Both the position numbers and the translations under genes were made by a program. Under the pieces are notes generated by a model. The model had not been told where the DNA came from and did not search any database. It saw nothing but the letters and a program-made list of their open reading frames with translations. DNA of 63,176 nucleotides, filler included, from Intoshia linei (Eukaryota > Animalia > Orthonectida), in NCBI GenBank assembly GCA_001642005.1. It is 4 parts of 4 records of this genome, joined end to end, with 100 filler letters (N's around TTAATTAATTAA, not from the genome) between each part and the next. Parts side by side here need not be neighbours in the genome. Positions count along the whole stretch, not along the records: positions 52,835 to 60,987 come from LWCA01001478.1; 3 more parts are not named here. One strand, given 5' to 3'. Below, piece by piece: positions 7,200 to 61,810 of this stretch; the first letter of the stretch is position 1, and the number at the start of each line of letters is the position of its first letter.

Positions 7200-8099
7200 T
7201 TTTTGATAAAAAAATATCAACCAGTTTTTCGGAATTTTCGTAAATGAATAATTTTAATCATCACTAATGATGAATGGTAATTATCAGTACATATTATTAT
7301 TAATTTAGCTCATGTTGGTACCAGATGTATTAATGTTTATAAACAAAATATTAGCAACGTAAACAAATTTAGTCAATTTTAATTAATACACTAATTAGTG
7401 TCACATACTATTATTTTAGCACTTCATTACAGTGTACTGCTTCACGTCATAGCAATGAGAAAGTTAATTACATTTATCGACGCTTTTAGTGGTCAAAATT
7501 AAGAATTCGTACATGTTGATCAAAATATATAAAATTTGATTTGCTTATTATATTATTGTATTTTGCTATAATTAATATAAATATTTAATAATCCTTATAG
7601 TGATCAAGAATTTGGCTACAGTGATATAAAACTGCAAAAAAGTAGTTAAGTATTGTACAATGTACAAAGTACTTGAAAATAAAATAATTATCCTTACTTA
7701 TTTCGGATAAATAATACATTGACAATGTAATATTCGTCAATCATTGATAACCACTATGCTAAAATTTACTATAAGATACATGTACCGGCGCGTAAAATAT
7801 TTTTACAATTTCAACACTCCAAAGATGTTTATAAAATTTATCCAAAATTTATATAATTCATTCCTTCGCAATTTTCAAAACATTTTGTATGAAATTGAAA
7901 TTAAAACTAAACAACGACTATTAAAAGTAATACAACTTTGTTATTATCATTTTTATATTAGTAGCGTAATCGGGTGTATAACTCATAAAAATGAAGTTAT
8001 AAATACATTTGGTAACAAGATAATGATATTAAGTACTAGCAGTAACTTCAATAGTGTACTACTAGAAACTTATATATCAAACATTATATTTCATGTAAA

Positions 8100-19000: not shown

Positions 19001-19243
19001 TTCTGTACCCGAAGGAGATTATACTAAAGATTACATATACTTTCGTGTATTTACACATTCACCACTATATTATGACGAGTTTATAGCTGAATGTGATATT
19101 CCGATAAAAATGGTTAAATTAGGAGAATCTATTCTATTACCACTTTATAAAACTGTACATTTTGATATTATATTATATTTTATTGGTTTTGTAAACAGAG
19201 CCAAACCTACCGTATTGTGAGACCTATCTGCGGGCCTCTTTGA
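16072..19243 (+). CDS. C2-domain-containing protein (synaptotagmin-like single C2), about 4 exons
   Basis: Exons ~16072-16323, ~16837-16984, ~18823-19154, ~19199-19243. The C-terminal part KYYIKIK..KKTCLKWFKEDFLFSVP..IYFRVFTHSPLYYDEFIAECDIPI follows the C2 pattern (K-T..FxExFxF, LxxxVxD, D-xFIG-xxxIPL). Confidence 0.6.
18235..18765. mobile_element. Degenerate hAT-like MITE in intron
   Basis: GC-rich ends (GCCGTCTTAAGCC..GGGCCGGAGGCCC and GGCCCTGGGCTACAGCCC) typical of CAGGGCCG-type hAT MITEs; TSD not clear. Confidence 0.45.
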
Positions 19244-22749: not shown

Positions 22750-22849
22750 NNNNNNNNNNNNNNNNNNNNNNNNNNNNNNNNNNNNNNNNNNNNTTAATTA
22801 ATTAANNNNNNNNNNNNNNNNNNNNNNNNNNNNNNNNNNNNNNNNNNNN
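22750..22849. other. Assembly gap with TTAATTAATTAA spacer (also 52735-52834 and 60988-61087)
   Basis: The same 100-nt N-run/TTAATTAATTAA/N-run layout occurs three times and gives stops in all six frames. Confidence 0.95.
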
Positions 22850-25914: not shown

Positions 25915-28170
25915 ATGTCATCAAGTAAATATTCAATTCGCGAGTTTGGTAGACCTCATAGCATCGATTACAGGTGTTATATAGGTAAAAATTAAAATTG
26001 ATGTACATTGTACATTAATTATCAACGCTTTTTAAGGGTTTATTTTAACTTTATACATTTAGAAAAAGACAATAAGATAATTTCGCCATTTCATGACATT
26101 GAATTGTACCCATTCACTGGCCGAAAAGATATCATCAATATTGTTATTGAAATTCCTCGTTATTCCAATGCTAAGGTTGAAATTTCGATGAAGGACAGGT
26201 ACAATCCGCTAAAGCACGACATTAAAAATGGTGCTGTTCGATACATTAAAAATATGTTTCCGTACCATGGGTATCCATGGAATTATGGTGCTATTCCACA
26301 GACTTGGGAAAATCCAAATTTAGCTGATAAGCACACTACCTGTTTAGGAGATGATGACCCCGTTGATGTCTGTGAAATTGGAGAAAAGGTTGTTGCGTGC
26401 ATTTTATAAATTAATTTTATTAGATTCATCCGGCCGGATCCGTTGTTCAAGTGAAGCCATTAGGCGTGATTGCTATGATTGATCAAGGTTTTTAATTGTT
26501 CAAAAATTAATAACATTTTACAAATATCCGTTTAAATGTGGTATAAGGTCCAATCACAATAGAGGGTAAATTTGCAACTGACACTTTAAAATTGTTTACT
26601 GGTAAAATCAAAGTAGAAGATTATTTCATTTAAAGCAGTGCTCTCAAAGTGCTCCACAGCTAAAGTAATATATTAGTTCAGAAATTAATTAATATTATTA
26701 TGGAGAAAATCGAAATTTATTAATTCTTAAGACAAAAATCCACATTGTAAATTTTTTTAGAAAAAACATCTTAATTAGTGTGGCCAAAAAAAAGACGTAC
26801 TATCACTTTTAGTTTATTTGGAATAAATTTTAAGCCGAAACTTTTTATTCGGCATCATAGATAAGTAGTTTAGGCTTTACATTTATCATCAAATAAACTA
26901 AAATTGATACTACGTCTTTTTTCTGGCCACACTATCTTAATCCAACCCTAAAAGAAAAAATTCAAATATACTAACCCTTAATAATATAATTAATAATACT
27001 AACCCCTAATATAAAAATCTTAATTAAAAATGATTAATTTAAGTGACCACTTTTTCAACATAAGTTAAAATCATAATGTCACTATAGTTACATTTTATTT
27101 CAAATACCGTATTCATTTTACATACATTTATCATTTTCCATCCTTTTTTAATTTTTTAAAATCTTCCAATTCTTCATTTTCTGCTATATTGATATTGTCA
27201 ATATCGTCATTAATTTGGTCTTCAATAAAATTGACGTTTTAATTTATATTTTTGGTCACACTTGGGAAGTGGTCACCCGTGTCTACTGTAAAATGATGAA
27301 AAAAATATTTACATATAAATATTTTAGGGTCCATGATAAATGATTTTTCAATTTTGGGGGTTGACGACGTTTATTACTTTGAGAAGCACTGATTTAAAGC
27401 ATTCAGTATTGCAATGATTTTAATGAATTAACTAATTGTGTAATTTTTACATTTTAGGAGAAACTGACTGGAAAATTATAGTAATTGATATTTCTGACCC
27501 TATGGCCCAGAAATTGAATGGTATAACAAAAAAATTAAATAAATAAATAAATTGAAACTTTAGATATATCTGATATTGAGAAGCTCATGCCAGGGTTTCT
27601 TAAGGTTTATATTATTTTTATATTGATGTATATTTTTTCGCTAGGGCACACAAAATTGGTTAAGGTATTATAAAGTACCTGAAGGTAAATCCGAAAATGA
27701 ATTTGCATTCAATGGAAATCCTAAACCTTGTGTATTTTAAAAAAAATTTAAATTTAATATTTGAATCAACAAATTTTTAGTCTTTCGCAAAGGAAATAAT
27801 CGACGAAACCCATGAGCAATGGAAAATTTTACTGAAATCTAAACATTTGAGAGAAAAACGTGCATGGTATTTTATAAACTATTTATATTACTGTAATTTT
27901 AATTAGTTACAATACTACATTAAAGGGAACTGAAACGTATACGGAAGAGAACGAGGCTAATCAAGAGACTAAAAAGGTAAAAACTATCGTAACTTACGTT
28001 AAAATTAAATTCATTATTTACATCATTTAATGGTCAATTTTAATAATTTTTTGTTAGAATCCAATATACCAAAAAATGGAAGGACTTTCATCTGCAGGTA
28101 ACTTGATTGCCTAAAACCTATTTTTAATTGTAACTTAGTTCATCGACAATACTACGTGCTACCTCAATAG
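25915..28170 (+). CDS. PPA1: Family I soluble inorganic pyrophosphatase, about 10 exons
   Basis: [12 protein letters not shown]..|..[45 protein letters not shown]|..MIDQG|ETDWKII..|..[16 protein letters not shown]|..THEQWK..|..YYVLPQ*. Confidence 0.95.
26636..27391. mobile_element. hAT-type MITE in PPA intron
   Basis: CAGTGCTCTCAAAGT / ACTTTGAGAAGCACTG TIRs and a perfect 8-bp TSD ATTTAAAG. Confidence 0.88.
26776..26934. mobile_element. MITE (TAGTGTGGCCA TIR) nested in the preceding MITE
   Basis: TIRs of about 40 bp (TAGTGTGGCCAAAAAAAAGACGTA / TACGTCTTTTTTCTGGCCACACTA), flanked by TCTTAAT on both sides. Confidence 0.85.
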
Positions 28171-28225: not shown

Positions 28226-31200
28226 TTATTTATCCGAATTTACAATAATTTTTGAAGGAGATTTTTCAATGCATTCGTTTGATATCAAATCAGATTTTTC
28301 CAGCTTTTCAGGCGAATCCACACTAGATGAAGTTGAAGATGGGTAATCTGTGTGAGCATTATGTTCGTGTTTAAGTGCAATATTTTCAGATTCCATTTTT
28401 ATTTTTTTGGTACTGGGTTCATCAAAATCATGGCAATGTCCGTTAACATTAGTCGGTGCATTTAAATCTGTATTCTTGGATTTAAGATAATCTTCAAACA
28501 TTTGTAATTGCGCTTTATTAAACGGAGAAAAAGATTGGGTTTGAAGGATATTTAATAGTTCATTAGGATTCATTTGGTAATTTTGATTAAATTGGTTCAT
28601 TACACTTGGAGATTGGTTCATTAATGGCGGGAAAGGAAACATTCCATTTTGAGGTCGATTGAAACGCATATTTTGATTAAAAAGTGGTGGAAAAGGGAAT
28701 TGTCCCATTGTATTTCCGTTCACTTTATTATGCATGTTGTTCATTATTCTTTTGTACTCTTCAGCTCGAATGCATTTCTTTTTTTGCCTAATTTTTAATT
28801 TTTAAAAATTTCATATATCGTAAATCAAAAAATTGTATTTATTTTGTTTAAGTTAAAATTAAATAATTCATTCACTAGTTCATTTAATTTAGACTACAGA
28901 CCCAAGTTAAAACTGAAATATTAAGATACCATATTATACCATCATATATTATATATATAGTTTATTTTTTTAAGATCTTTTAATAGTGCACCAACATCAT
29001 TACATATACAGGCTAATTCCTTGTTAACGGAATAATTAGTATGAAAAAAATCTAATTACGTTAACGAGAATGTTTTTCCATCAAAATTCCTCGTTAACGG
29101 AATTATTTATAAATAATGTATACATTAAAACAGTGGTTCCCGATTGGGGTTTAAAATCATAAATGGGATCCGTGAGATTCAAATACCATATAGAAAAATT
29201 TTCATCCATTTTTGTTTATTTTTATGGGATAATATTTATTACAGATTTTCTTCCGTTCTGAATTTTTTCCGTTAAATAGGAATTAACCTGTATAATCAAT
29301 CAATAATTACCGACAAGGCTGACACCATTCATAAAGCTTATTTATTCCATATCTGGCTCTGCATTTTTTGAAACATTCTGGAGCTAAATGTATAATGTAT
29401 CACATCTGACATATTTATGATCCATTGTAAAAATGACCCATTAAAAAAAATTTAAAAAAAGTATAAACTTTAAATTAATCATACTGTTATTATTAAAATA
29501 TTAAAATTGGTAAGAGGTAATTAATGTTTGTTTTAGCATAAAGTCTAAAATAATTAATTTATTGTAATTATTCAAAAATTCAATCTTAATTTATTGCTAA
29601 TAAATTAGTTCTTAAATACTTCATAACCGTTTAGATATCAAATTACTTGGTGCACCATTCATATAATTCATATTCTTTTTTCTTTTAGAATGTGTGGCGT
29701 AGTTGTCTCTAGCAGACCATTGTGGATATCTTTTGTTGTGTAAATCCTTTTCTTTTTTGGCAAGAATGTAATATTTTTCTTGTTCTTCTTTACTCAAAGA
29801 ATGCCACTATATAATTTAAAGCTTAATTTAAAACTTAAAAATTACAATGTACAATGTAATTTTAATATTACCTTTCTTCCTAGAATTTGATTAATCGCAG
29901 CAGACTCTTTGAGAGTATGTTCCTCAACAACACTAGATCTATTTTCTTTCATATAAATCATGAATGCGTTTAGTGGTTTCTTGACGTAATTTATATCCTT
30001 TTTGGTTTTTTTAGGTGCCAGTGGTGTGTCATTACGATTAGAAAGATTAAGAGTAGCGATAGGAGAACGCAATTTATCCAGATTGCTTGGGTCCATCATG
30101 TGTAAAAATGCTGGGTTAGAACCACCCATCTGACTTAATGATGGGTTCATCATGGCATCATTCCACATTTTCATGTTATACATGTTTAAATTTGGATTTG
30201 AGTATTGTGCAACTTTTACATCTCCTTAATTTGAATGAAAATAAATAAAAATGTACAATTACCAATATGAGCTGGTGGAGGCTGAATGGAAGGATTGGAA
30301 GAACTGAGTCCATATATTGAAGCCAGTTGATTAGATGATGGAAATTGTGGCATAAAAGGACAACCCGTGCCATTCTAAAATAGAAATTTATTTTTATAAC
30401 CGACAGAGATTAATAATGGACAACGGTTCATGAATAAGTATAAAGAAATCAAAAAAATTGACATGCTAGTTATTTAATGAGACATTATATTCCCCTCCAG
30501 CACATTTTTAATTTAGATGGAAAATATAAATTACATTTAACGACACTTAAATATACATAAATTGAAAATTCAAAGTTAAATTACACTAGCGGTCCATTTA
30601 TTACATGTAAATTTTTGACTAATAAATATATTGGAAAGGCATTTTCACCACATTCTCACGCCTTTTTAGACATTAATTATACATCTGACAGTGTTCGTGA
30701 AAATGCATTAATAAAATTTATATTTATGCTTATTTTTAGTTTTCCGAAAATTAATAAATATAAAATATTCTGTTTAATGTTTAAATACATAATATTAAAT
30801 TTATAACGATTAAAGTTTAAGTTTATAAAATTAATTGGTAAATACATGTAATTGAATTTTTCTTCTTTCAAATTTTTATGAATGGATATTCTTAAAATTA
30901 TAGGACCCCATTAAATATCGACAAATGTAAAAATTTTGATTAATCATATTTAATCAAGTGGAATATTATTTAAATTAATAGGATAAATGTAGTACCAATG
31001 TATATTTTATAACATTCATTTTGTATTAAAAAATTTAAAGTAATTTAAACAAATGGGTTCATACTCTTTACTTTTAGAAACCCGCAGGATCCCAATTGAG
31101 AAAAAAAAACAATAACATAATACTTTTTCTAGTTTATTCGAAAATATACAAAAACCTATAAGTTATAATTCGAAATGTCGGTTTCATCTATATTTTAAAA

Positions 31201-35898: not shown

Positions 35899-38800
35899 TT
35901 AAATACAATATATTACAATTATGCGTCTTTCATGTTATTGTCGATTCCATACAAGTTTAATGTCCTATCCAAACTTACACTATACACACGATTTGAATTT
36001 AACCCGAATCGTGCCGATGTGACCAATTCTGAGTGGTTTTCGAAACTGTTTATCATTTCCCAATGTTTTGAACTGTACAATCTAATTTGAAATTAAGTTT
36101 TATAAATTATATTGAGAAATTGAATGGTTCACATTTATGGTAATATTTAATATAGGATAACCTCGCTTTGGTGCACTTAACGACTCAAAATCGGGGTGCT
36201 CATAAACCGATATTAATAAAAGTCAAGTTGTTATTTTTTTAATAAATTAATTAGTAATTACAATATGGTACTACAAGATTATCAATGTTGATATAGAAAT
36301 TAAAGGAAAAAAATTTGAAATCGACTTTGATAGATGTTGGTAGTGTCGAACCTACCATACACAGGGACGTGGAGAGCCACCAGTAGGCCCTGTAAAAATT
36401 TTATAAAAAATGTGACCTCTACATTGTTTAATCGATCATTCACTATCTAAAAATTAAAAATAACACTTGGAAATCTCATAGGTCATCGAAATAGGGTATA
36501 CTTAACATAATAATATAATATAATATATTATTAATAATTATTATTAATATATTAGTATATTAATATGGCCCTAGCCCTCTTTTCACGACCCTGACCGTAC
36601 CTAAAACTCCTTGGGGCCTTAAACCCGGGACCTTGACCAAATTTTTATAAAATAGGTCATATTTATTCCAAATTGAGCATTAAATATTTTTTGTGTTAAA
36701 ATTTAACTTAAATAGAAAACGTCAAGTTAAGCCTTAGGTTGATGGCTAGGGGTATACGACATCCGCTCGTGTTTGAAAGTTTTTAAAGGGCCAAAATAAT
36801 TTTTAATATATTATCAACCAATATTTTTCAAATATTTCAATTAAAATAAAAATGAAAATGCAAATTGATCCTACAATTTTAAAAATAAAGTGCAATTTGT
36901 AGCCATATACATTTCCAATATAGAAATATAGATAAACTACTGTATTTATTATTGATTATTTATTGAATTTAAAATATTTAAAACTTAAACTTTAAATTAA
37001 ATTTTAATTTTGTAGTTATAATAATAGGTTTTTCTTCATCACGATTTGATATTGATTGACTATTGACACTGACTAACTCAATATGTGAAAATAAAACTTA
37101 TCTAACGAAAAATAGTATTAAAAATTAGATTTTTTGTTTGAAATTGATAATTAATTTTTAAGCGATAGTAAGCAAATATAAAGATAAAATTATTCAAATA
37201 AACGATAACACACAGACAGACAAACAAAAAGTTTTATATAAGTAAGCATACCAAACCCTGTCGTTAGAAAATAAAGTAATGAGATTTTCTCTTAAATTTT
37301 TTAGTTACATGAAGGTCAAAAAGTTAAAAATAAGTTTTCTTAAATCAAATTGAACCATATTAATCTATTAAGATATTTCAAACATATACCTTAAATCGGT
37401 TCCAGCAACACATAAATAACAACCACTTTTATCAAAACTAATATCGTTTATCTAAAATAGAATGAATTGCATTTAAAAACAATAAACAGTGTAATCCAGT
37501 TGAGGTTTGTTTAAATTGATTGATTTAAAGTTCTTAAGTTTCCTTAAATCCCATAATTTCAATATACCATCATGTGTAGCTGAAGCAAGGTAATAACCTA
37601 AAACAAGAATTACTAAAATATTAAAAAAATAAAAGTGCAAACGCAATCAACAATCATATCAAATTCAAAATACTAATTAGTAATTACAATGCATTGTAAT
37701 TAAATTATAATACCGTTTTCTGAAAATGAAAGACTAATAACGCTTCCAGTGTGACCCTCAAAGGAGGCAACATTTTCATTTTGCTTTAAATCCCAGATTT
37801 CAATAATTGAATCTTTTCTTCCAATACCAAAAATCAAACCATCCGGATGAAATTCAGCAGAATATTGAGCTAAACAGAGATCATTTTTTGAAATATTAAA
37901 AAAAACGTATTTTTCTATTTGATTTTGATTTTGTTACAATTTTTCCAATATTTATATCTGAGAAAGCCCACATCTAAAAAAATATACACGGAATTATAAA
38001 GTACATACTCCATCTTCCGATGAACTAATAATGTGGTTTTCTATTGCATGCATAGAAATCCCAGTGACACCAGCGTCATGAGCCTTTAGTGTATAATTGC
38101 AAGAACTATTTGGAATGTCCCAAACTTTGATACGGCCATCCAAACTTGCTGAAACGACATTTGCCTAGATGATAATAATTGTAAAAATTATTAAAAAATA
38201 TTACAATACCTCATTGTTGTGATATATAACATTGGTAATTTTCTTAGTGTGCCCTTTAAAGTTTGAAATGATACTTTCTTCTTTGTTATCAAATACAATA
38301 ACGTTTTTATCTTTACCGCCTATATTTTATCAATCAATAGTTTAAATTAAACTTACCAGTTACAACTCGACTGTCATTTTTAAGGCAAACATCCAAACAA
38401 GATATACCCGGTAGACTGGCACTATGCAAACCCTAAAGTTAAATTTTTATAAACCATTTAACAATGTAAATAAAAATAAAATAAATTCAAATTTACCGAG
38501 TTGGATTTTAGTATTTCATAAGTTCTAACGTCCACGGGCTTTGCAACATGATCTGGAATTGATTTTCCACGTTTCTTACGTTCTGCTGTCAGCGATTTCG
38601 AAAACAATTGAATCTAATAAATAATAACACTAGCATTCTTTTATTAACCTCATTCAATAATTCATCTGACATGCCAATTTCCTCAGATATTTCGTTGGCA
38701 TATACAACATCCTTCATTGATTCTCCGTCTCTTAATTTATTCCCATACTAAATTTACAAATTAAAACGTTTGATTCAATTTTTACTTGTGAAGATTCATT

Positions 38801-41092: not shown

Positions 41093-41592
41093 TAAGGCAA
41101 GCAAAAGTCAGAAAAGTTAAAATTTGATATGTTAAATAGTTTAATATTTTCACCATGATGGCACTAATATCGTTAATATTAATTGGCTAATTAAAATTTT
41201 TTACAAATGTTAGAATTTTTTTAAAAGTTCATAATATTTTAAGAATATTTCCAAATAAATTTAAAATGAAGGCCGGCAGTTTAATTTGTATCAAATGCAA
41301 TTATGATGTCTCATTTGAGAAATTATATGATGTCCAGAGTCATAGGTCGTCTGTTAAACACAAATCATTAACTTTGAATGATACTACTCCAATCCGTAAA
41401 TATTGCAAATTAAAAAGTGATTTTGCTATTGACATAGTAGAACTTTCTGCCTCGTTAGACCTTATACAAGTTAAACAACAAAAACTTAAAGGAATTTTTT
41501 ACCAACATGGGCAAATCGCTATCATCTGAAAAGAATTGTCGTGGTAAAATCGACCAGGTATATTTGAAAGAAATTGAAAGGATAAAATCGTG
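41093..41592 (+). mobile_element. CGGBP1-like hAT, 5' part (copy 3) with BED-type zinc-finger fragment
   Basis: TAAGGCAAGCAAAAG terminus; LICIKCNYDV..QSHRSSVKH (CxxC..H..H), then DFAIDIVE..LYKLNNKNLKEFF; homologous to copy 2. Confidence 0.75.
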
Positions 41593-43188
41593 AAAATATT
41601 TTTATTGTATTTTCATTATTTTCTGAATCATCTATAATTAATAATTCATCAGCATTTCCAAGGTTAACCAAACTTTCAAACTCAGTGTGGATTTTTCTTT
41701 CAGTGTTGATAATTAGATTAGATTGAGTATTTATATGAGACTCCAGTTTTTTGAGTAGTGATGTATTAACAGTATATTTTAATTGTTTTTCTTTCATGTC
41801 TTTTAGCTTCGCAGTATTGTTTAATGTTAATTTTGTTATAATGTATGGGCCAAATTGCCGAGCACCTAATTTTCCTAACCGATTTTGGTATCGTTTTGAA
41901 TTAGTTTTTCAAACTATGTCGTTAACAATCAATGATGTTACGTTTCTTTTTTTATTATGATACTGAATGTTTTTTCTCCAGCCACTCTAATTGCCTCCTT
42001 TAATTGATCTGTTCTATTGGTTATGCTTTCTTCACTGACAATGTGCTCAGAAATACGACCTAATGTACCACAGGATGGGTGTTCCTATTCCACGGGAAGT
42101 TTAGGTTTTACATTAAAAACTACTTCATATGGAATTTCTTTGGTTGTACTATGTTTTCGTGTCCTTTATGCAAATAACACAGCATTAATGTATTCATCCC
42201 AATCATTTTTATTGTTAGAAACAAATTTCATTAATGATGTTACAATTGTTTGGTTCATTCTTTCAACTATACCATTCGTCTGAGGATGATACGCTGCTGA
42301 CCTTCGATAATCAGTATTTAGGATGGAAAGTATTTGATGTAATAGTTTATTATTAAATTCTTTGCCCTGATCAGATTGTAAAATTTTAAAAATTCCATAT
42401 CTGTAAATAATTTCATAAACCAGAATCTTCGCAATGGTATTAGCTTTTTTGTTTTTGATTGCGAAAACTTTTGGCCATTTGCTGAAATGGTCAGTAACAA
42501 CCATAATGTACACATTTTCGTTTTTTGCCTGGGGCAGAGGACCAACAAGATCGATTACTACCCTTTTCATGAACATAGAACTCTGTATTGGCTTAAGTTC
42601 AGTTATGATTTTTTTAGGAATATTACATTTGTTACATTGTACACAATTTGCTATTTTGGTTTTGACAAATTGACATATTGAATGAAAATAATATCTATCA
42701 TTAAATTTTCGAATTGTTGTTGTAATACCAAAGTGGGCGCCTTCTTTGAATGTATAAATAAAATCAAAAATGCTATCAATCTCTTTTTTTAAAACAATAA
42801 TTCGATGATTTCCAATTAGCATTTGTTGTTCCACGTAAGCATCATTATAGTCACCTTTAATATTATGAATAGTTTTATCATATTTAATGTTGATTATTAA
42901 ATTGTCGGTTTTGCTGTAGTACAGTATTTTAGGCAGGATATATTTCAGACGCAGCTTTTCTTTGGTAGAAACACCCTCAGGGAACATTTTAAAATGTAAT
43001 GAAATTTTTAACAAATCCTTCATATTAAGCATCTTAATTTTTTCTCTTATTTTGTATTTTTTTATTATATTAATAATTTTTGATTTTATTATAAACTAAT
43101 AATTGATGATTGTGAGGATACAATGTAATAAGGAATCCATACTAAAGATCAAGCACTCCACAACAGACCAACAATATCGATAGCAACA
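41593..43188 (-). mobile_element. Ginger-like (Gypsy-integrase-related) element, degenerate
   Basis: ORF 43032-42166 has HFG..CVQC and DLVG..SDQG..VER (DD35E), continuing through stops and a frameshift to FGPYII (GPY/F). There is no RT, RNaseH or gag upstream of its Met; a candidate TGT terminus lies at 43188. Confidence 0.75.
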
Positions 43189-43885: not shown

Positions 43886-44857
43886 ATGTCATCCGCAGTA
43901 AGTACAATAATAATGCAACCAATAATAAATTTAGAGAAAAAATTTTATAAAAAAAAAAGATGATAGCCCTATACTAGGTCAAAAAAATGTCAAAAAACCA
44001 TCAACCCTAGAAAAAAACAAAACCAATGTTAATAGAAAATCTTCTAATGCAAAATCAATCGAACTGGAAACTCCAAAAGAAACTACCGCGCCAAAAGAAG
44101 TTTCAGAAGTTAAACTAGAAAGTGAACATTTAAAGAAAAAGGAAGTTAAAGATGTAAAAAAACCCAGACACACTAGTAATGTATTTGCCTTATTCAAACA
44201 AGTGCAAATTCAAGAATTTAAAGAGGTTACGTGACTATTAACGGTGCATTATGAATTTTAGGCTTTTACTATGATTGATCAAAATCGGGATGGTTTTATA
44301 GATGAAAACGATTTGGCTGCCATGTACGCAAATATAGGTAGTTTTTATAAAAAATACTCGTCACGTTAGCTTCAATTTAATCAATAGTCACCATCAATTT
44401 ATTTTGTCTCATTTTTTAGTTGCATTAAATGTTATATATACTATTATATAGGTCGCGACGCAGATCCAGAAACTTTACATCAAATGCTTAATGAAGCACC
44501 CGGTCAACTGAACTTTACAACCTTTTTAACGCTTTTTGGGGAAAAAATGCATGGAAGCGATTCTGAAACTATGCTAATGGATTCATTTGCCATGTTTGAC
44601 AAAGAAGGGAAAGGGAAAATTCCATTCAACTAGTAATACCCTACATTTAAAAGGATTTATACACTAATTTAGTTTTAAAGAATTACTAACGGAAGTAGGG
44701 GACCAATTTACTGAAGATGAGGTAATACAAATAAATTTAGTTTAAATTCATACATTTAAAGCTACGAAATACATTAAAAGACGCTCCAATCGACAATGAT
44801 GAACTGGATTATATAAAATTTGTGGAAACTATAAAACATGGAAATCAAGAAGATTAA
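43886..44857 (+). CDS. Myosin regulatory light chain with ~90-aa N-terminal extension, 6 exons
   Basis: MSSA|(37-nt intron)RKNFIKK..KKPRHTSNVFALFKQVQIQEFKE|AFTMIDQNRDGFIDENDL..|..MLNEAPGQLNFTTFLTLFGEK..|..GDQFTEDE|..LDYIKFVETIKHGNQED*. Confidence 0.93.
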
Positions 44858-44944: not shown

Positions 44945-50119
<5,175 letters not shown>

Positions 50120-52488: not shown

Positions 52489-53080
52489 ATGCAACTTTAT
52501 TGATATTATCCATAGCACGTATCCGTAGTCGAGTAATGATAAAAAACGAAAGGAATCAATTGAGATTAAAATAGTGTCCAGATTTTATAAGTACTAAATA
52601 AGTACTTTTCGAAATGTTTTAGAAACAAAAAGAACAATAAAATTTGAATTAAAAGTTCTAACAATTTAAAATATGAAATTTAAATGTTAATTTTATTGGT
52701 ATTTATCATTGCAAATTATTTTTTTACATAATTCNNNNNNNNNNNNNNNNNNNNNNNNNNNNNNNNNNNNNNNNNNNNTTAATTAATTAANNNNNNNNNN
52801 NNNNNNNNNNNNNNNNNNNNNNNNNNNNNNNNNNCATGATTTGTACACTTACTCCATTTTTATTGTTTCATATTTCATTTTATAAATTCAAATTATTATA
52901 AATTAATTAAATTTGTTAGTTTTAAAATAATTTTTTGAGTAAAGACTTTTTTGTGTGGCCCGCGTAATATTTTTTTTTCACATTCGGCCCGCCAAGCACA
53001 TCAAGTGTGACACCCCTGATCTATACATTTACTGCCTATTGCCTATAGGCAAGCTGTGTTTATAGCAAGTATTTAATATA

Positions 53081-53295
53081 CAGTGAAACCGTTTTATAAA
53101 CAAACCCCTCTATAAACAAATTATCATGTTTTTAAAAATATGTCAATCCTATATAATTTGTTTATTACATTTTCACATATCAACAGTTTACGTTGTATGA
53201 AATATTTATAACACTTATCACGCTTTTTTGATACTCAAAAAAACAAATTAGTTGTTAAATTTTCAAAATCGTATGTTTATAAAGAGGTTTCACTG
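53081..53295. mobile_element. pogo/Tigger-type MITE
   Basis: TA|CAGTGAAACCGTTTTATAAACA ... TGTTTATAAAGAGGTTTCACTG|TA. Confidence 0.85.
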
Positions 53296-53856
53296 TATTA
53301 CCTTAAAACTTCTTAAATATTTTGTAATTTGAATGGAATTTGATTAAAGTGGACCCAATTATATAGTGTATATAAAATTATTACAAAATTTCAATTTTTT
53401 TCATTTAAAGTGGATTTACAAAATTTTCACAAATATATATTCAAAATAATATATAAATTATATACCTTTTTACGCATCTGTTTAATAAAAGTATATATGG
53501 ATCGGTTAACGTTTTCATAAAATGGAAATTAAAGTATAATTATTTTAGTAATACAATGATATTGTATTTTTAAAGTAATAAATGTCGTGGGCCCCGAAAA
53601 TGCAAAAAATATTTATATGTAAATATTTTTTTCATCATGTTATATGCTTTAATTATTAAATTTAATTTATTAATTTTATATAATTATTTATTGTATTTTT
53701 AATTAGACAGTTTTTAAAAAAAATTAAAAAAGTGGATTTCTACCTTAAGGGTTGATAACTTTGGCTTTGTTCTTTCACGAGTGGATTAAGTGATTTTTGT
53801 AGTTATAAAGAGTGTAAAATTGAACATTTGTATAAAATTTATATAAAAAAATTTAG

Positions 53857-56800
53857 ACACTGAAAATACTGACCTATATTTCACTACAGATGGAACAAAA
53901 CCAAATCCTTATAAATTAAAAGTAAACGGTAAAGAAGTTACATTTAAATATGTTGGACCATTTTTACTAAAAAATGGGAAACGAACCGTAAAAGCAATAG
54001 CTATAAAATAGTAATCATATATGTTTTATTACAATTTATTTAAATTCATAAATTAATTATTATGATAATATATTATGTAGTATTTATATTATTTGAATAT
54101 CTTAAATTGAATATATTAATAATGATTTTAGCGAGGAAGACATACTAAGTAGCGTAACGACAAAAACGTTTGTTGTAGGAAACCAAACTTTAGAAAAATC
54201 CAACCCTAAACAACAACTTGTATCGCAACCACAATATGATGTACTTTTATATGATGGGGATTTCATTACTACGCACAGGATAACTTTAGAAATTTATGAA
54301 ATATTTATAAATTTACCCAGTACCATAAAAGACTTACATGTACTGAGAACCTAAAAAATAAACCATGTTTCTTATTCAATTGGCTACAAATCATATTTAT
54401 GACACACACTCTGTGTATGAACAGTGCATTGTTCATACATTTAATTATTTAAATTTAAATGTAAACAAAATGATTATATATTTAACCAAAATATAGAATA
54501 GCTTTACTGGACTTCAGAATACCTTATAAACTTTTTAACGTGATTTAAGACTTGTTTGGTTTCAATGTGAGAGGGTTTTTTTCACTAAAATGTCGCACAT
54601 GATATTAGTATTACTTATCATTTTTATTATTTCTTATAGAATCAATCATTTTCAAAACCGAGAAGAATAAATAAAAATGAAGTTAAAGCAACGGTCGAGG
54701 AAAGTAAAAATAACAACTGTTTAGGTAAATTATTTAGGTTTATATTTTCAAAATAAGCAAGTAATCTTAAAAGCCCTTAACCATCCACCTCGAACTAGAG
54801 ACTTGGAAATACAAAACTAAAACAATTTGTCAACCATTTAAATACCATTAATCCAGTGGTTCTCGATTGGGTCCAGGACCCTTGAGTATCCAAAACTATA
54901 TGCCTGGAGGTCCCAGAATATTGACATTTTATTGTTTTTTTTTATCTTCAATTTTAATAATTTTATTTCAATTTGAATAATCGAATTTACTTTTGGCTAT
55001 ATTTATAATAATTTAAATTACCACATTAGAAATGCAACCAATTAATGCATCCATAAACTTACCAGATGGTCCATTCACAACAACAAATTATTCTGGGACT
55101 CAAATAAATGTATGGGGTGTTTCTCCGCATGCTATATATCCGTTTGGGAATGGTCAAAATAATTCACAATTTAATGAAAACACTGAAGGGTAATTTTATT
55201 ATACTGGGTAATCTCTTTTGTATATTTTTATAATTTGTATTAACTACATCTACATCTGCAGAAGGCAGATGTTTCCATAAATAATCACATTCTTAATATC
55301 GACATTTTGCCAAAATATTAATGGCAGTATTTAAATCAAGGGTTCCCTAACTCATTTTGTCTACCTCCACTTTTCAGCAATATATTTTTAACACCCTCTT
55401 GAAAACATTTTCGACTACGTATTATAATATGTCTTTATAAATTTACTCAATAATTATATATGTCAATTAATATTTAATCCCCTGGGCGGGCGATATCGCT
55501 AACTTTGGGAACCCCTTATTTAGATATAACGTTATATCCAATAGATCATAGATACGGTTAATACGTATGAATAATAAAACAGTAAAATAATTATAAAATT
55601 TAAGCATAGTAACGGTATTGAGGAATGACGACAGGCGTTATTTTAAATAATTTTTACAGCTAAAAATCATTTTTAAATTTTTTTTATTTTTACAAAAATT
55701 TCCTTAAACTAGTCTTTTCAAAGTTGCGGTTGGTTTATAATATTATCGGATCATATCTGTTTTTATTATTCTTATAATTGACTATGTTGACTGTTATGTA
55801 CTACGTACAAACAGCACCTAGCTCTGCCGAGGGCACATTTTTATTATACCAAAAAAATAAATTCACGTTGAAAATCTAACTTAAAAAATCCTACCATTGT
55901 ACTACTAAAATGGGAATTTGAGAATGAAAAATTGCGTAGCAATAAAAAAAATTCTGAAGGAATGAATTATATAGATTTTTACCTATATTTCTTTATTGGA
56001 AATGGGTATACGTTCAATGCACATTTTTTTGAAATTGTAGGATCAATATTTACATTTTCAATGTTTATTTTAATCGAAATATTTGAAAAATATTGGTTGA
56101 TAATATATTTAAAACAATTTTTCACCAGGAATAAGTAGATTTTTGAGGTTGAAATTTTGTATTTATATCAGCTGAAATAAGCTCTATCAGAATAATCGTT
56201 TAGTTTAATTTTCGGACAGTTAATTATTTCACATATTTGTTTTAATAAAATATTTTGGAAAAAAAAATATATGAATACTAAAATGCTTTTTTGACCATGA
56301 AGTCTTCACTTATTCGGATTGAAATTTTTTGTGTGCTGTGTTAACAGGATACAACTGTACCACCACCTGTAAATTTTTTTATATTCTAGGGCTGTTTTCA
56401 TTAAAAAAAAAAGGGTAATTTGTGGTTTTGGCCGTGAATATTTAATTTTTTTAAATTTAAATATATGATAATGTTTATGATTTTCAAATTTGTATCAGCG
56501 TATATATTTTTTTAAATTCTTTAACTTGTTTCATTTTCAAAAAAAACAACAATTGGAGGTTTTTGACCCGTAAGATGTGAGTTTGGGAGGTTGAAATTTA
56601 TCTTATTATACAGTTTTTGACCCGTAAGATGTGAAATTGGGAGGTTGAAATTTATCTTATTATACGGTTTTTGACCCTTAAGATGTGAAATTGGGAGGTT
56701 GAAATTTATCTTATTATACGCGGAAAAAAACTGTAATTGAAATGTGGACTTTATACAATTCTATGACTGGTAGTTATTGAAATAAACGATAACACACAAA

Positions 56801-59800
56801 AAAATATTACAAAGCATATTATATAAGTAAGGATTAGAGTGCTCAAAGAATTCTTTTTTTTACAAATTAAATTAGATTTTAATTTTGAAAAACATAACAT
56901 AGCATTTTTATTACGAGTAATTTTTTTATAACTACACAACTTAAAATAAACCTTGGTGGCGCAAAACCGTGAAAATGGCAAGTGTCACATAGACCGGTAT
57001 AAAATGATGAGCGTATATTAAAATTACCCACTATGTATTACACAAACATATACAATGTACATTGTACAAATGTTTACATTTATATGAGTGAGAATATTTT
57101 TAATTTTTTTGTGCTATCCTTCATAAGACAATAATTATTTTATTACATTTAATATTAGGTGTGCTGATATAACTAATGCATTATTGAAAACTCCAATATC
57201 TAATACACCTAAAACTGAATCTGTAACTCGAGAAGAGATGGAATCAATGATGAATAATTTTATGGATAAAGTTAAAAGTCAGAAACAGGAAAAAGTAAAC
57301 ATTATACCCGCAAAACCAATTGAAACAAAATTTTCGCCGATGATGGAGGATAAATGTGAAGGAAAAGGTTTTAATATTTACCATATTTTGGTCAAAACCG
57401 AAAATATATGCTTGAGCTTCTCCGAAACCCAAAATAGGCCACTGACCATGACCATGGCAATTTAAATTTGATACATAAAACGGTTGATTTTGAAAAATAT
57501 TATATTTGTAAGTGCTCACTGGGCTCAGTTGGAACAATGGTGATCCCATTATGCTAACATTTAGTCGAGACCCCGAAAATTTATTGCTCGACCTAGAATG
57601 AAATATTATTATATCAATTTAACTAGATTTGTTCCAAGTTATGAGTCACATATGGGCACACACTGAAAATTACTGTGGAAAGAATACAAGTTTTCGAACT
57701 AATTTTTCTACTTTAAAAATAGGAAAGGTTTGTAATTGCATATAGAGTATATTAAACACTATATAAAATACAGTAATGTATATTAACTATGATGATAAAA
57801 AAAGGCGATAATTTTAGAATATTTTTGAAGAATAATATTGAATAATAAATTATTCAACAATAAAATAATCAATAAAATATATAAAAATCAATAAAAAAAT
57901 AATTTATCATTTTAATAGAATATCAGACAATTTATTTTAGTTATTAAATGCATTTGTGAGTAACGAAACAAATGGATTAAACATAAATTTCCGATTTGAA
58001 AGTTTTAATAAACCAGCCAGAAAAGCTTCAATCGTACAACAAACACAAGTTGCACCACCTAAACCAATTTCAGTCAAAAAAGTTGAAAAACCACCAGTGA
58101 GAAAAATCAGCATAAAACCGCCTCCAGCAGAAGCAAATAAAAAGAAAATTGTTGGTCGTAGATCTTCCATGAAGGACAAAAAATTGGAAGCAGACAAAGC
58201 GTATCTTGAAACAGAGGAATATGAGGTTATTTAATTAAAATTTGAACATCGAATTTGATGTATTAAATATTTTTAAACCTTTTAAATTATCTTGTATAGC
58301 AAGCTGGTACACTAAAGTCCTGGGAATGTTTTAATTCTGAAAGAGATGCAGAATTGCTTAGAACCTCAATGAAAGGAATTGGAACTGATGAAAAACAAAT
58401 TATTAACATTATGGGATATCGCTCATTTGATCAGAGAGCTGAGGTGGTAGAAATGTTTAAAACTTTGTTTGGAAAGGTATATATATATAATAATATCTAC
58501 AATAATATTTGATTAATGTAAATTTTTATATTTAGGATTTGATTAAAGAATTGGAAGGTGAATTGTCTGGGAATTTTGAAACAATTTGTACTGCACTTTG
58601 TTTGAGGCCGGCAGAATTGGATGCAAAATATATATATGATTCCATTAAAGGTCTTGGAACAGATGAAGATTGTTTGACTGAAATTTTGTGTACTAGGACT
58701 AATAAACAAATAAAAGTCATAAAAGAAGTTTATGAAAAAAGTAACATTATTCATTTCGAGAAGTGGAAGGGGTTTTTTAAATGTTTATGGAATTAAATCG
58801 AATCATTTTTAGTTTTAAGTGTAACGTAAGTGTGATAATTATATAAATATCTAGAATACAAAAATAAATTGGAAAGTGACGTAAAGGAAGATACGAGTGG
58901 ATGTTACAGAAAAGTCTTATTGTCTCAAGTAGCAGCCAACCGTATAGAAAATCCAGAGTTTGATAGAACTGCAGCTAAGAACGATGCAAAAAAATTGTAT
59001 AGTGCTGGAGAAGAAAAATGGGGAACCGATGAATCCGCGTAAATAATATAATTAAAATTAAAATGATTTAATTAATTAATTTACAAATACGATATTTTTC
59101 ATAGAATTCAGTAATGATTACAATTGTTGTGCATATTTCACATGAAATAACATTAATTATTCATTTTTAGATTTATAAATATTTTGTGTAAACGCAGTTT
59201 TCCTCATTTGAGAGCAGTTTTTGAAGAGTATACTACTGTATCTAAAAAAAATATGTTAGAAGCAATTGATAGTGAATTTTCTAAGGATATTAAAACTGCA
59301 TTAAAAACAGTTGGTAATTTTAAATTCACTCTTACAATGCTTATACTAAAATCTACAGTCTATTTATCCCTGTCCGCGATTTTAAGATAATGATTCTAAA
59401 GTTTGTCATGTAGCCCATGTTAGGGTCAAATGAAAATATTTGAGACACAGGAAAAATTATAGTATATGATTCACATAAATATATGTTTATTTATATTATT
59501 ATAATACCTGATAGTTAATAAAAATGTGTTCCTAATTAGTGGCCACTGGCCACGATTCAAGGTTTATACACTTTAAAATGTTATTAGGTTAAGAAATGAT
59601 AAATGGTCCATAAGTACATAATTCTTATTAATTAATTGTAATCTTTAATTACATTATACAATTATACAATATGATAATATTATACAATGTATAATATTAT
59701 GTATAGTACGAGTGATACAGAATAAGCCTGCCTATTTTGCGTATAAATTGAACAAAGCAATAAAAGGTATGGGCACAGACGATGACGCTTTGGTACGTAT

Positions 59801-59888
59801 TGTAATATCTCGATGTGAAATTGATATGGTTCAAATAATGGATTCTTTCCAAACTCAATTCAATGAACCATTATCCAAATGGATTGAG
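53857..59888 (+). CDS. Annexin with long N-terminus beginning in a DZANK1-type (CHB_HEX_C/Fn3-associated) domain; first and last exons not seen
   Basis: Twelve phase-compatible exons from DTENTDLYFTTDGTKP..FKYVGPFLLKNGKRTVKAIA to four annexin repeats (MKGIGTDE, IKGLGTDE, KWGTDE, IKGMGTDD..ISRCEIDM). The annexin core (58300-59888) is certain; its linkage to the upstream exons is inferred. Confidence 0.8.
55337..55517. mobile_element. hAT-type MITE
   Basis: AAGGGTTCCCTAAC / TTTGGGAACCCCTT ends with ATTTAAAT / ATTTAGAT flanks. Confidence 0.65.
55801..56833 (-). mobile_element. Helitron-like copy with both termini and an internal deletion
   Basis: Both termini match 46359-47636 (TCCTTACTTATATA; GCCCTCGGCAGAGCTAGG..GTACGTAG|T). 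Confidence 0.72.
56560..56720. repeat. 3 x 54-bp tandem repeat inside the Helitron-like copy
   Basis: TTTTTGACCCGTAAGATGTGA..GGGAGGTTGAAATTTATCTTATTATAC, with GACCC at 56565, 56619 and 56673. Confidence 0.92.
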
Positions 59889-59929
59889 GTACATGTTTAA
59901 ATGTTAGATATTTTTAAATTATATAAATC

Positions 59930-60620
59930 AGTGATGGCAATCAAATTAAATGTGGTGCAGACTCTGCACTGCAGAGTTGGCAGATGTTGGGAATTTATCC
60001 CAAAGCCTAGCTAACCGCTACATTATTATTTCAAAAATCCCACTTTTATCCCACCATTAATAAAATTTAATAATATTTAATAAAAAATACCATTTTAAAT
60101 CGTTATCGAAAATATCTACTTTCACGGACATTTTTTTTAAAAAATCCAATTTTAACAACCCTTAAGAGAAAAATCCGATTTTACCAAATATTATGAAAAT
60201 CACCTTCTTAATTCAACCCCAAAATTTAAAATGCAATTGTACAAACCCTTAAGGAAAAAATATCATTTTTTCTATATTTTTTTGAAAACTCTACTTAGTC
60301 CAACCTAAAAACTTTTATGAAGTATATACATATATACAATTATATTGTATTATATTTAATTTTACATAAAAAAGTTCATGTTACCAAAAATAAAAAATTT
60401 ATTTATCCAATATTTTTTTTGAAAAATTCGAATTTACCAAATTTGATGAAAATCAACTTATTAATCCAACCCAAAATAAAAAATGCTATTTAACCAACTC
60501 TTAAAGAAAAATCTCCTTTTTACATAATTTTTTTGAAAAATTGGAATTTACTAAACTTTATGAGAAAACCTCTTAATCAAACCACAAACTAAAAAATCCA
60601 ATAAATAACGACATTTTAGT
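59930..60620. repeat. hAT-end (CAGTGATGGC) element with degenerate minisatellite in annexin intron
   Basis: CAGTGATGGCAA at ~59929, followed by AAAATCC..TTTACCAA..CCTTAA units like those at 31560-32060. Confidence 0.55.
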
Positions 60621-61294
60621 TCAGAGTTGTTATTTTTAGTAGTTTCCCTTTCGTTAAAACATCCAAAAACATGATTAAATAAATAATTTAAATATTTCAC
60701 CCAATTCAAAAATGTAATAAAATTAGTCTTAAATGTCTTAGTCTAAGGTAAATAGTTCAATTTGACAACATCTTAAAAAAAATTTAATTTTAACTTTAAA
60801 TTCTTGATAATTAAAATCAAGATTATTGATACATTTATATACAGGGATTGGAATTAATTGATTGCAATTAATTGGTAAAAATTATTGAAAAAAATCCATT
60901 ATTATTAACATTTTATTATACAATATCAAACTATTAGTTGCATTATATTTTATTTGCAAAATAGTATTTAGAAAATATTTTCATATTNNNNNNNNNNNNN
61001 NNNNNNNNNNNNNNNNNNNNNNNNNNNNNNNTTAATTAATTAANNNNNNNNNNNNNNNNNNNNNNNNNNNNNNNNNNNNNNNNNNNNAATAAAATAAGAT
61101 GTTTGGTTTAGCTGTTTTTGAGTATTCCACTTTTTCAAGATTACACAATATCAATTGGCATTTACATTAAGTGATATAAAAAAGGATAATTCATTTTATG
61201 CAGGAGTTATGCATTGATTTTTTTTTCTCCTTGTGTATTTCCTTAATCCGCAATATTTATAACTTATCTATAAAATGTACGCATTAAAGATTGA

Positions 61295-61810
61295 TTGACA
61301 TTGATAATTTTTGTATTATTTAAACCACTCTTCACGTGTGATTTTGATATGTCGGAAGGCAAGCTATGCTTAAGTGATTTCCTTTTACTTATTAATATGG
61401 ATGGTTTTATTTATATGCGTGAACAATTAATTACTTTATTTACATTTTATAATACTTTTATTTTATCCAATATGACTTCTCGTCAATTGGACTTTGCTGT
61501 TGGTCATTATTTTGATTATGATTTTAACCTAAATAAAATACTCTCAAGAAAAGATGTTCTTCGAAGAATATTATGTTTGAAACAAAGTAAAAAAGTATTC
61601 GTTTTCAGAATAATTAGTGGTGAATTGAGTGAAACATATTAAAACTGGGTTAAACATTATTGGAAGAAAGAGGATGGAAGACAATTAATAAAGTTATATA
61701 AATTATAGAAAAAAAATATAGAACTCGCTCATGCAGCGAAAAGGGTAATTATTGTGTTGGAACATGTTATGAATGGAAAACGTGTAACGATACTATCTGT
61801 CTAGTTAATG
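61295..61810 (+). mobile_element. Possible piggyBac-like C-terminal transposase remnant
   Basis: FYNTFIL..ILSRKDVLRRIL followed by a frameshifted Cys-rich tail (RSCSEKGNYCVGTC..TC..IC); weak. Confidence 0.3.

Follow-up and report, generated by a model that had tools for sequence, protein, structure and literature searches.

An annexin core joined to the modules of DZANK1 in Intoshia linei and across invertebrate phyla

The gene A3Q56_07249 of the orthonectid Intoshia linei joins modules shared with the cilium-base protein DZANK1 to a C-terminal annexin core, and the protein it encodes is not a one-off chimera but a member of an old family conserved across invertebrate phyla. That the gene is a spliced fusion (through exon 5), that its Ig-like and central domains are homologous to those of DZANK1, that it has neither zinc ribbons nor ankyrins, that the calcium-site sequences of annexin repeats I-III are intact, and that the arrangement is conserved across phyla may jointly be regarded as nearly certain.

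Gene Model and Transcript Support

The window analyzed, a stretch of 63,176 nucleotides, is made of four contigs joined by artificial linker, so synteny was rejected as evidence. Within it, 12 GT-AG exons (Table 1) splice into a single open frame of 664 residues with no stops, identical to residues 1-664 of the 665-residue NCBI model P0001 ("hypothetical protein A3Q56_07249, partial [Intoshia linei]"). Eight of these exons had been named in an earlier, sequence-only reading of the same DNA; their AG/GT ends and phases (2,0,1,2,1,0,0) all hold, as do their bounds except for the start of exon 6, which moves from 57628 to 57627.

Table 1. Exons of A3Q56_07249 present in the window and what each encodes
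Exon	Positions	Strand	Content
1 (of those present)	53857..54010	+	Residues 1-50; DZANK1-type Ig-like domain (Fn3_assoc/CHB_HEX_C_1); Pfam E 5.1e-9
2	54132..54240	+	Final Ig-like strands (modeled to residue 66), then start of disordered spacer
3	54640..54724	+	Disordered spacer, poorly conserved; pLDDT < 50; joints on both sides in both runs
4	55030..55189	+	Conserved linear motif with GTQI core, residues 128-145, ~55065-55118; candidate LC8/DYNLL strand
5	57159..57367	+	Helix (residues 193-208), then start of DZANK1 central domain
6	57627..57727	+	Two helices of DZANK1 central domain
7	57941..58225	+	Beta-hairpin closing central domain, Lys/Pro-rich disordered stretch, conserved lead-in to annexin core
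8	58300..58476	+	Annexin repeat I with GxGT loop; Pfam E 5e-14; acidic cap at exon 9 start
9	58536..58740	+	End of repeat I and repeat II with GxGT loop; Pfam E 1e-16
10	58855..59038	+	End of repeat II and start of repeat III; Pfam E 1e-7
11	59171..59313	+	Remainder of repeat III with acidic cap; Pfam E 7e-12
12	59707..59888	+	Most of repeat IV; Pfam E 1e-14; GT donor at end

RNA-seq or long-read support for the junctions had been proposed as a check. Two public runs (one study) contain spliced contigs that join exons 1-5: introns 1-3 are skipped at exactly the predicted GT..AG sites, and the loose end following exon 4 matches the first part of exon 5. Reads were mapped to positions 52840-55600, which covers the joints through exon 5; the later junctions are predicted from the open frame, the public model, and the alignment of homologues across the exon 5/6/7/8 joints.

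The copy in the window is cut at both contig ends. Upstream of exon 1 the spliced contigs carry 187 and 163 extra letters, and a 30-letter piece of this part of the transcript is absent from the window, from which an upstream coding exon is missing. No further annexin exon was found in the window after exon 12, and the contig stops at 60987, before the gene does; about 1,680 letters of spliced contig fall beyond the exons of the window.

That gene prediction merged two neighboring genes and that no fused protein exists is very improbable, and this reading is already largely refuted. It draws on the partial state of the public model and on the span of the read mapping, which covers joints through exon 5, and a contig spanning two genes is not by itself proof of one transcript. 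Against it, one spliced contig (3,860 letters) starts upstream of exon 1, reaches exon 5, and extends 3,162 letters more, the homologue alignments span the exon 5/6/7/8 junctions, several of the homologues described below that carry both domains come from contigs of 3-5 kb containing the whole frame, and an oyster cluster has 119 members.

The DZANK1-derived N-terminal Half

A Pfam search with the spliced protein, another check that had been suggested, places Fn3_assoc in the first exons (residues 1-64, E 2.3e-8) and annexin in the later ones. The sequence-only reading had likened these first exons to DZANK1, and the likeness is stronger than it proposed. Human DZANK1 is the sole significant match of exon 1 among PDB sequences (E 1.9e-6; one of three rows), the HH probability for the likeness of the Ig-like domain to DZANK1 is 99.7, and a profile of the domain built from the fusion family scores DZANK1 at 100.7 bits, as compared with at most 31.2 bits for the repeated Fn3_assoc of three unrelated metagenome proteins. 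An Atlas search with the Ig domain alone returned mostly bacterial Fn3_assoc clusters, with DZANK1 not among the matches listed.

The stretch of about 300 residues that had been described as a linker is present but is not a plain linker, as it contains both a conserved GTQ motif and a folded 65-residue domain that DZANK1 also has. This central domain (residues 229-291, spliced over ~57337-57997) is predicted to adopt an alpha-alpha-beta-beta arrangement with pLDDT of about 90. It matches canonical DZANK1s pairwise in five of five comparisons (E 4e-5 to 1e-3), and a family profile from which both Intoshia and DZANK1 were left out gives 61.9 bits for bat DZANK1, 30.8 bits for Intoshia, and less than 0 for other annexins. 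The Intoshia copy, at that score, is divergent. Among the best 150 of 287 matches to the profile, 86 have zinc ribbons and/or ankyrins without annexin, 12 have annexin, 4 have the Ig domain as only companion, and 48 have nothing else (47 of them shorter than 300 residues). No Pfam model was found for the domain, and Foldseek with the predicted structure gave no matches at E 0.001 or better. A resemblance to the cyanase fold (VIA best Z 2.9, rmsd 4.5, 57 aligned) was within noise and was set aside. The DZANK1 chain of 11xu was not among the fold-search matches, and that structure may postdate the libraries searched.

The S/T/A-GTQ core occurs in 48 of 50 members of the fusion family; P0123 is one of the two without it. 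In A3Q56_07249 the core reads T-Q-I, as compared with the canonical anchor TQT, and lies within predicted disorder (pLDDT < 50). LC8 anchors on TQT, or on variants of it whose -1 and +1 side chains are branched, within disordered regions, and many TQT peptides are among the non-binders (both in PMC6607443). The GTQI motif is a candidate, or putative, LC8/DYNLL-binding strand. In 67 of 80 DZANK1-type proteins a TQT precedes the same central domain, at a distance of mostly 25-45 residues, whereas in the fusions the spacing is 80-113. Comparison of the motif flanks with bat DZANK1 gave nothing above 5 bits, and the helix that follows TQT in DZANK1, a possible doublet-binding element, has no clear counterpart in the fusion.

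The zinc ribbons and ankyrins that had been reported as missing are indeed so: a CxxC pair occurs in none of 50 family N-terminal halves (bat DZANK1 has eight CxxC), and Pfam detects no ankyrin repeats in A3Q56_07249 or in any of five family members scanned. The disordered spacer begins at the position where DZANK1 has its zinc ribbons. The Lys/Pro-rich end of the former linker also stands, with 18 K/R, 4 D/E, and 9 P in the 62 residues of the exon 7 stretch, and a net charge of +5 or more precedes the annexin core in 43 of 50 family members.

The Annexin Core

The C-terminal region belongs to the annexin superfamily, having four repeats of ~70 residues (Pfam E 4.9e-80) with type II calcium-site sequences. 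Repeats I-III have a GxGT loop and an acidic cap (E, D, and E, respectively); repeat IV has the loop, and its cap lies beyond the contig. For each repeat, 35-45 of 38-47 family members retain the cap. Of the four-repeat core first proposed, the four stretches stand; a complete fourth repeat does not, as it ends at the contig edge, and the full-length Intoshia core probably has eight.

The core is 39-46% identical to solved annexins, with a model rmsd of 1.2-2.5 Å. The canonical forms (A4, A5, A7, A11, and Hydra annexin XII) share its GxGT loops and acidic caps, but no top match among solved structures extends over residues 1-360 of the query. Canonical four-repeat annexins have N termini that are short or of low complexity.

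Distribution and History of the Family

The search for this architecture in other metazoans that had been advised finds Fn3_assoc together with annexin in 45 proteins besides the query among 120 homologues listed. The family is present in molluscs, annelids, nemerteans, a brachiopod, flatworms, a rotifer, and Priapulus; no description of a DZANK1-annexin architecture was found in the literature searched. Members have either four or eight annexin repeats. Two four-repeat cores are present in most, and the nemertean, brachiopod, and flatworm members have a single core. Oyster entries of 1,046 residues were considered as an isoform in which some of the Ig domain is skipped, but their sequences diverge from the very first residue and probably reflect shorter start calls.

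As the linker holds the GTQ motif and the central domain common to DZANK1, the fusion reads, at the level of sequence, as a DZANK1 paralogue without zinc ribbons and with annexin repeats in place of ankyrins. It is considered a separate paralogue because Mya, Pinctada, Tubulanus, Macrostomum, and Priapulus each carry an ordinary DZANK1 beside it. In a FastTree analysis of 47 proteins over a short alignment of 170 columns, all 20 fusions fall apart from the canonical DZANK1s with support of 0.895. The order of modules is the same in both, from Ig-like domain to TQ motif to central domain to a C-terminal repeat block. DZANK1 differs in having zinc ribbons, which form its NINL-binding part, together with ankyrins and a TQT nearer the central domain, whereas the fusion has TQI or TQV and one or two annexin cores.

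The name "annexin A6-like", which databases mostly give to the family, arises because most members have two four-repeat cores. Vertebrate annexin A6 (PDB 1m9i, 1avc) likewise has eight repeats but not the 350-550-residue DZANK1-derived half. The fusion is not an ANXA6 orthologue: in FastTree trees of 54 and 40 cores, with ordinary single-core annexins left out, all fusion cores lie outside both A6-half clades and do not descend with them. Doubling of the core thus looks independent of that in A6.

A DZANK1-like protein of the starfish Asterias rubens (XP_033629438.1, P0199) shares with the fusion the Ig-like domain, the lack of zinc ribbons, the central domain, and four annexin repeats, but keeps the canonical TQT and has ankyrins between the central domain and the annexin core; ankyrins and annexin occur together only in this form. 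Because TQT and ankyrins are retained, it appears to be either an intermediate or a fusion that arose in parallel. One possible, if tentative, history is that a second DZANK gene arose before protostomes and deuterostomes diverged and lost its zinc ribbons, that annexin was added behind the ankyrins (the starfish state), and that the ankyrins then disappeared in protostomes. Its product would connect transition-zone doublets to the ciliary membrane in a calcium-switched manner.

Possible Functions

At a probability of roughly one half, we favor a dimer that LC8 clamps together at the ciliary base and that, as calcium rises, would bind acidic membrane and so tether microtubule doublets to it. 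The proposed steps descend in certainty. First, the annexin cores would bind calcium and phospholipid. Second, the GTQI motif would bind LC8 and so pair two chains. Third, the central domain would dimerize and, with LC8, dock on transition-zone or basal-body microtubules in the manner of DZANK1. Fourth, and least certain, the basic Pro-rich spacer would give the cores reach to the membrane, and a rise in calcium would switch the tether on. The protein may thereby couple membrane binding to the ciliary machinery. The module order shared with DZANK1 and the retained acidic caps speak for this reading. DZANK1 is reported to pull down DYNLL1/2 and to be brought to the basal body together with them (PMC4617706), and bioRxiv 10.64898/2026.06.11.731632 places a DZANK1 dimer and an LC8 dimer on the A-tubule of the transition-zone doublet. 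Markers shared by larval ciliary cells of oyster and flatworm include annexins of unspecified type (PMC10396302). A screen for spiralian-specific ciliary-band genes (PMC7441323) mentions annexin neither in its text nor in four supplement files. Against the tether, the TZ-linker is called specific to mammalian multiciliated cells in the same preprint, bioRxiv 10.64898/2026.06.11.731632. The TQI/TQV form of the motif, its wider spacing from the central domain, its flanks without a match in bat DZANK1, the missing counterpart of the helix after TQT, and the divergence of the Intoshia central domain also count against it.

With an ordinary DZANK1 still present beside it, the paralogue may no longer be ciliary. 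It would then be a calcium-dependent membrane scaffold with 8-16 annexin repeats, merely dimerized by LC8 and the central domain, that serves membrane cross-linking, repair, or cortical organization while the Ig domain has a different partner. We consider this rather unlikely. LC8 is a general dimerization hub with many non-dynein clients (PMC6607443 and PMC12017986), the DZANK1 retained in the five species named above would free the paralogue, and many members have a doubled core, a feature shared with vertebrate annexin A6. That Priapulus, flatworms, and molluscs alike keep all three DZANK1-like modules in the same order is, however, more than dimerization alone would need.

A vesicle-to-dynein adaptor, the second option of the sequence-only reading, is unlikely. 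Here annexin would grip vesicles, and the DZANK1 end would connect them to cytoplasmic dynein by way of LC8 and a ninein-like adaptor. According to PMC4617706, loss of zebrafish Dzank1 causes vesicle build-up and impaired retrograde transport, and the binding of DYNLL1/2 by DZANK1 would also fit. The same study reports that NINL binds the zinc-finger segment of DZANK1, a region absent from the fusion, which weakens the NINL/dynein-transport version; moreover, the two light chains are the only dynein-1 subunits it reports in the DZANK1 complex, which a dynein-independent LC8 client would match too.

Significance

How the transition-zone doublet is tied to the membrane is loosely defined, and DZANK1 and LC8 have only lately been placed there. 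That DZANK1 modules are naturally combined with a lipid-binding core dependent on calcium suggests a microtubule-membrane link that can be switched, and this is testable in ciliated model invertebrates. The fusion family also marks out which parts of DZANK1 form its working core, a conserved motif and a folded domain that had no annotation, and it indicates that many invertebrate "annexin A6-like" entries are misnamed. If the second-gene history is true, calcium would have a direct means of controlling how cilia are gated, arrested, or shed in the multiciliated cells of invertebrates, through a link concealed in databases under that name. The fusion has been retained even in the highly reduced genome of an orthonectid.

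A conserved family across invertebrates

The Intoshia gene (53857..59888) belongs to an old fusion family that joins two known protein families, those of DZANK1 and the annexins. The pairing of Fn3_assoc (PF13287) with Annexin (PF00191) recurs widely in other metazoans, being found in 46, the query counted, of the 120 matches listed out of 518; named carriers are gastropods, bivalves, a chiton, cephalopods, annelids (Owenia, Paralvinella), nemerteans, a tapeworm and the rotifer Seison, and Macrostomum, Lingula, trematodes and Priapulus widen the range. Most members have about 1,100 residues and eight annexin repeats, whereas those from nemerteans, a brachiopod and flatworms carry four. An Atlas cluster named "annexin A6-like" (158 members) carries Annexin in 100% and Fn3_assoc in 98%, and in an oyster cluster of 119 members the whole frame lies within contigs of 3.5-4.5 kb for many. 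The Priapulus model P0243 has 11 annexin repeats, the last three resembling, by eye, a near-copy of repeats 6-8; these may be an assembly duplication.

The fusion is apparently undescribed. The domain pair is visible in automatic database annotation. The sequence-only reading did not know the architecture as a characterized one, and no description was found in the literature searched, mostly as titles and openings of abstracts, with few subscription papers covered. In the portions available, an invertebrate annexin survey that used the core only (PMC3795353) makes no mention of it, nor do PMC13082021, PMC13594227, PMC12249979, PMC10396302 or PMC7441323 describe it.

Gene model and transcripts

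All eight exons first proposed have the expected AG/GT ends and phases, with the start of exon 6 corrected from 57628 to 57627. Together with four further exons they form a stop-free frame of 664 residues that agrees exactly with residues 1-664 of the 665 in A3Q56_07249, the public partial model of the orthonectid Intoshia linei; the contig of that model has 8,153 bases, the same size as window 52835-60987. In a Pfam scan the spliced protein shows Fn3_assoc over residues 1-64 and annexin in four stretches.

Two public runs from a single study, their kind unrecorded, contain 0.26 and 0.24 of the words in 53600-60100, a region where 0.25 are wholly exonic. Within 52840-55600, the region compared with transcripts, introns 1-3 are skipped at the predicted GT..AG sites in both runs, and the loose contig end past exon 4 matches the beginning of exon 5. 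The fusion gene is real and expressed, with transcript junctions covering exons 1-5; that it is a prediction artefact is extremely improbable.

One spliced contig of 3,860 letters extends 187 letters 5' of exon 1 and 3,162 beyond exon 4. Read by eye, its final 30 upstream letters form ten stop-free codons in the frame of exon 1; this piece is absent from the window. As exons 5-12 account for 1,484 of the downstream letters, about 1,678 are left. These could be a long 3' UTR, but they suit a second annexin core, which takes 1,095-1,170 letters in two relatives with eight repeats, as against the 57-72 needed to complete one, so that the Intoshia gene probably encodes eight repeats.

DZANK1 origin of the N-terminal half

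The N-terminal half of the chiton homologue retrieves bat DZANK1 at E 3e-34. With profiles made from 49 family members, Intoshia and DZANK1 being excluded, the Ig-like domain scores 100.7 bits in DZANK1 versus at most 31.2 for Fn3_assoc repeats of three unrelated proteins, and the central domain scores 61.9 bits at DZANK1 residues 430-492, 30.8 at Intoshia 229-291 and below zero on other annexins. Intoshia by itself matches both regions in all five canonical DZANK1s examined, in keeping with the DZANK1 likeness first seen in the initial exons. The stretch once taken for a plain linker of ~300 residues does lie between the two ends, but it contains this central domain and is, judged by similarity, DZANK1-derived.

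The predicted fold of the central domain comprises two helices and a long hairpin (pLDDT near 90); the domain has no match in Pfam or in structure-library fold searches. When 1.84 billion representatives were searched with a profile in which one row was DZANK1, 287 matched. Among the best 150, annexin accompanies the domain in 12, zinc ribbons and/or ankyrins without annexin in 86 and the Ig domain as sole extra in four, and 48 have no other domain (47 being shorter than 300 residues).

Of 50 family members, 48 have a GTQ motif upstream of the central domain, and in 67 of 80 DZANK1-type proteins a TQT lies no more than 60 residues away from that domain. Against homology of the two motifs, their flanks do not cross-score, the family has I, V or M after the Q, and the spacing from motif to domain is two to three times longer in the family. 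Zinc ribbons are absent as proposed, a CxxC pair occurring in none of 50 family N-terminal halves.

Paralogy and trees

A fusion and a DZANK1-type gene coexist in each of Mya, Pinctada, Tubulanus, Macrostomum and Priapulus; the fusion is a paralogue of DZANK1, not its replacement. In a 170-column tree of 47 proteins, 20 fusions stand apart from canonical DZANK1s (support 0.895). Two starfish species, Asterias (P0199) among them, have no zinc ribbons and combine the Ig domain, a canonical TQT and the central domain with ankyrins and four annexin repeats; a DZANK paralogue in the hemichordate Glandiceps (P0214) also lacks zinc ribbons and has ankyrins but no annexin. In the tree of 47 proteins, which is unrooted, these forms lie, with weak support (0.66), between fusions and canonical DZANK1; in a tree of annexin cores, the one from starfish nests with those of the fusions (0.898). 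These placements agree with one old fusion event after which protostomes lost the ankyrins. The starfish fusion might instead have arisen in parallel: the trees include no ordinary single-core annexins, and the whole fusion clade reaches only 0.47 in the core tree that includes starfish.

Fusion cores differ from vertebrate annexin A6 in lying outside the A6 clades in both core trees, where the Intoshia core joins annelid first cores (0.98, 0.99). In four eight-repeat annexins without the DZANK half (P0093, P0095, P0114 and P0120, from a beetle, a tardigrade, an unnamed record and a frog), each protein's two halves pair with each other, which suggests that such cores doubled repeatedly and independently.

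Other features of the window

The window is four artificially joined contigs, the spacers not being sized gaps, so gene order and neighbours across them are uninformative. The integrase stretch at 41191-43095 is likely part of an LTR retrotransposon, and the HMG box is presumably TCF/LEF-like. Two open frames, which by eye we take to resemble a myosin regulatory light chain (43935-44630, +) and a TIR-like segment (61295-61639, +), gave no Pfam match when scanned as single exons. In intron 4 a unit of roughly 57 bases occurs, by eye, in three near-identical copies (about 56550-56720).

Features located in the window
Feature	Position	Strand	Basis or remark
DDE_3 transposase fragment	330-902	+	
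Protein kinase exon(s)	4629-7253	-	Pfam
C2 domain exon	18816-19217	+	Pfam
Inorganic pyrophosphatase exon	26002-26406	+	Pfam
HMG box exon	29845-30225	-	Pfam
Prp19-like WD40 exon	37703-37933	-	Pfam
Integrase core and H2C2 zinc-binding domain	42169-43095 (within 41191-43095)	-	Domain matches
Smad-family gene, MH1 (E 1e-40) and MH2 (E 1e-28) exons	44948-50119	-	Pfam; different contig from fusion
Three identical spacers (44N-12 base-44N)	22750-22849, 52735-52834, 60988-61087		

Proposed function

In the accessible text of PMC4617706, DZANK1 binds DYNLL1/2 and travels with them to the basal body, and its zinc-finger segment is the partner site for NINL. LC8 anchors are described, in the parts available, as TQT or variants in disordered regions, with two clients per dimer (PMC6607443, PMC12017986). 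A 2026 preprint, as far as its available text goes, assigns one dimer each of DZANK1 and LC8, partly by AlphaFold fitting, to the surface of the A-tubule in the bovine transition-zone doublet (10.64898/2026.06.11.731632); PDB 11xu contains four DZANK1 chains.

Compared with DZANK1, the fusion retains both folded domains and a candidate strand for LC8 while dropping the NINL-binding part, and, unlike DZANK1, it has annexin cores that follow a basic, Pro-rich spacer. A role as a vesicle-dynein adaptor is unlikely. GxGT loops occur in all four Intoshia annexin repeats and acidic caps in repeats I-III (per repeat, in 35-45 of 38-47 family members), so the calcium sites look intact from sequence. 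A membrane scaffold unconnected with cilia is a doubtful explanation, if a somewhat better one than the adaptor. The simplest reading, at roughly even odds, is that the fusion protein would be a dimer held at ciliary-base microtubules, and that a rise in calcium would cause this dimer to grip membrane.
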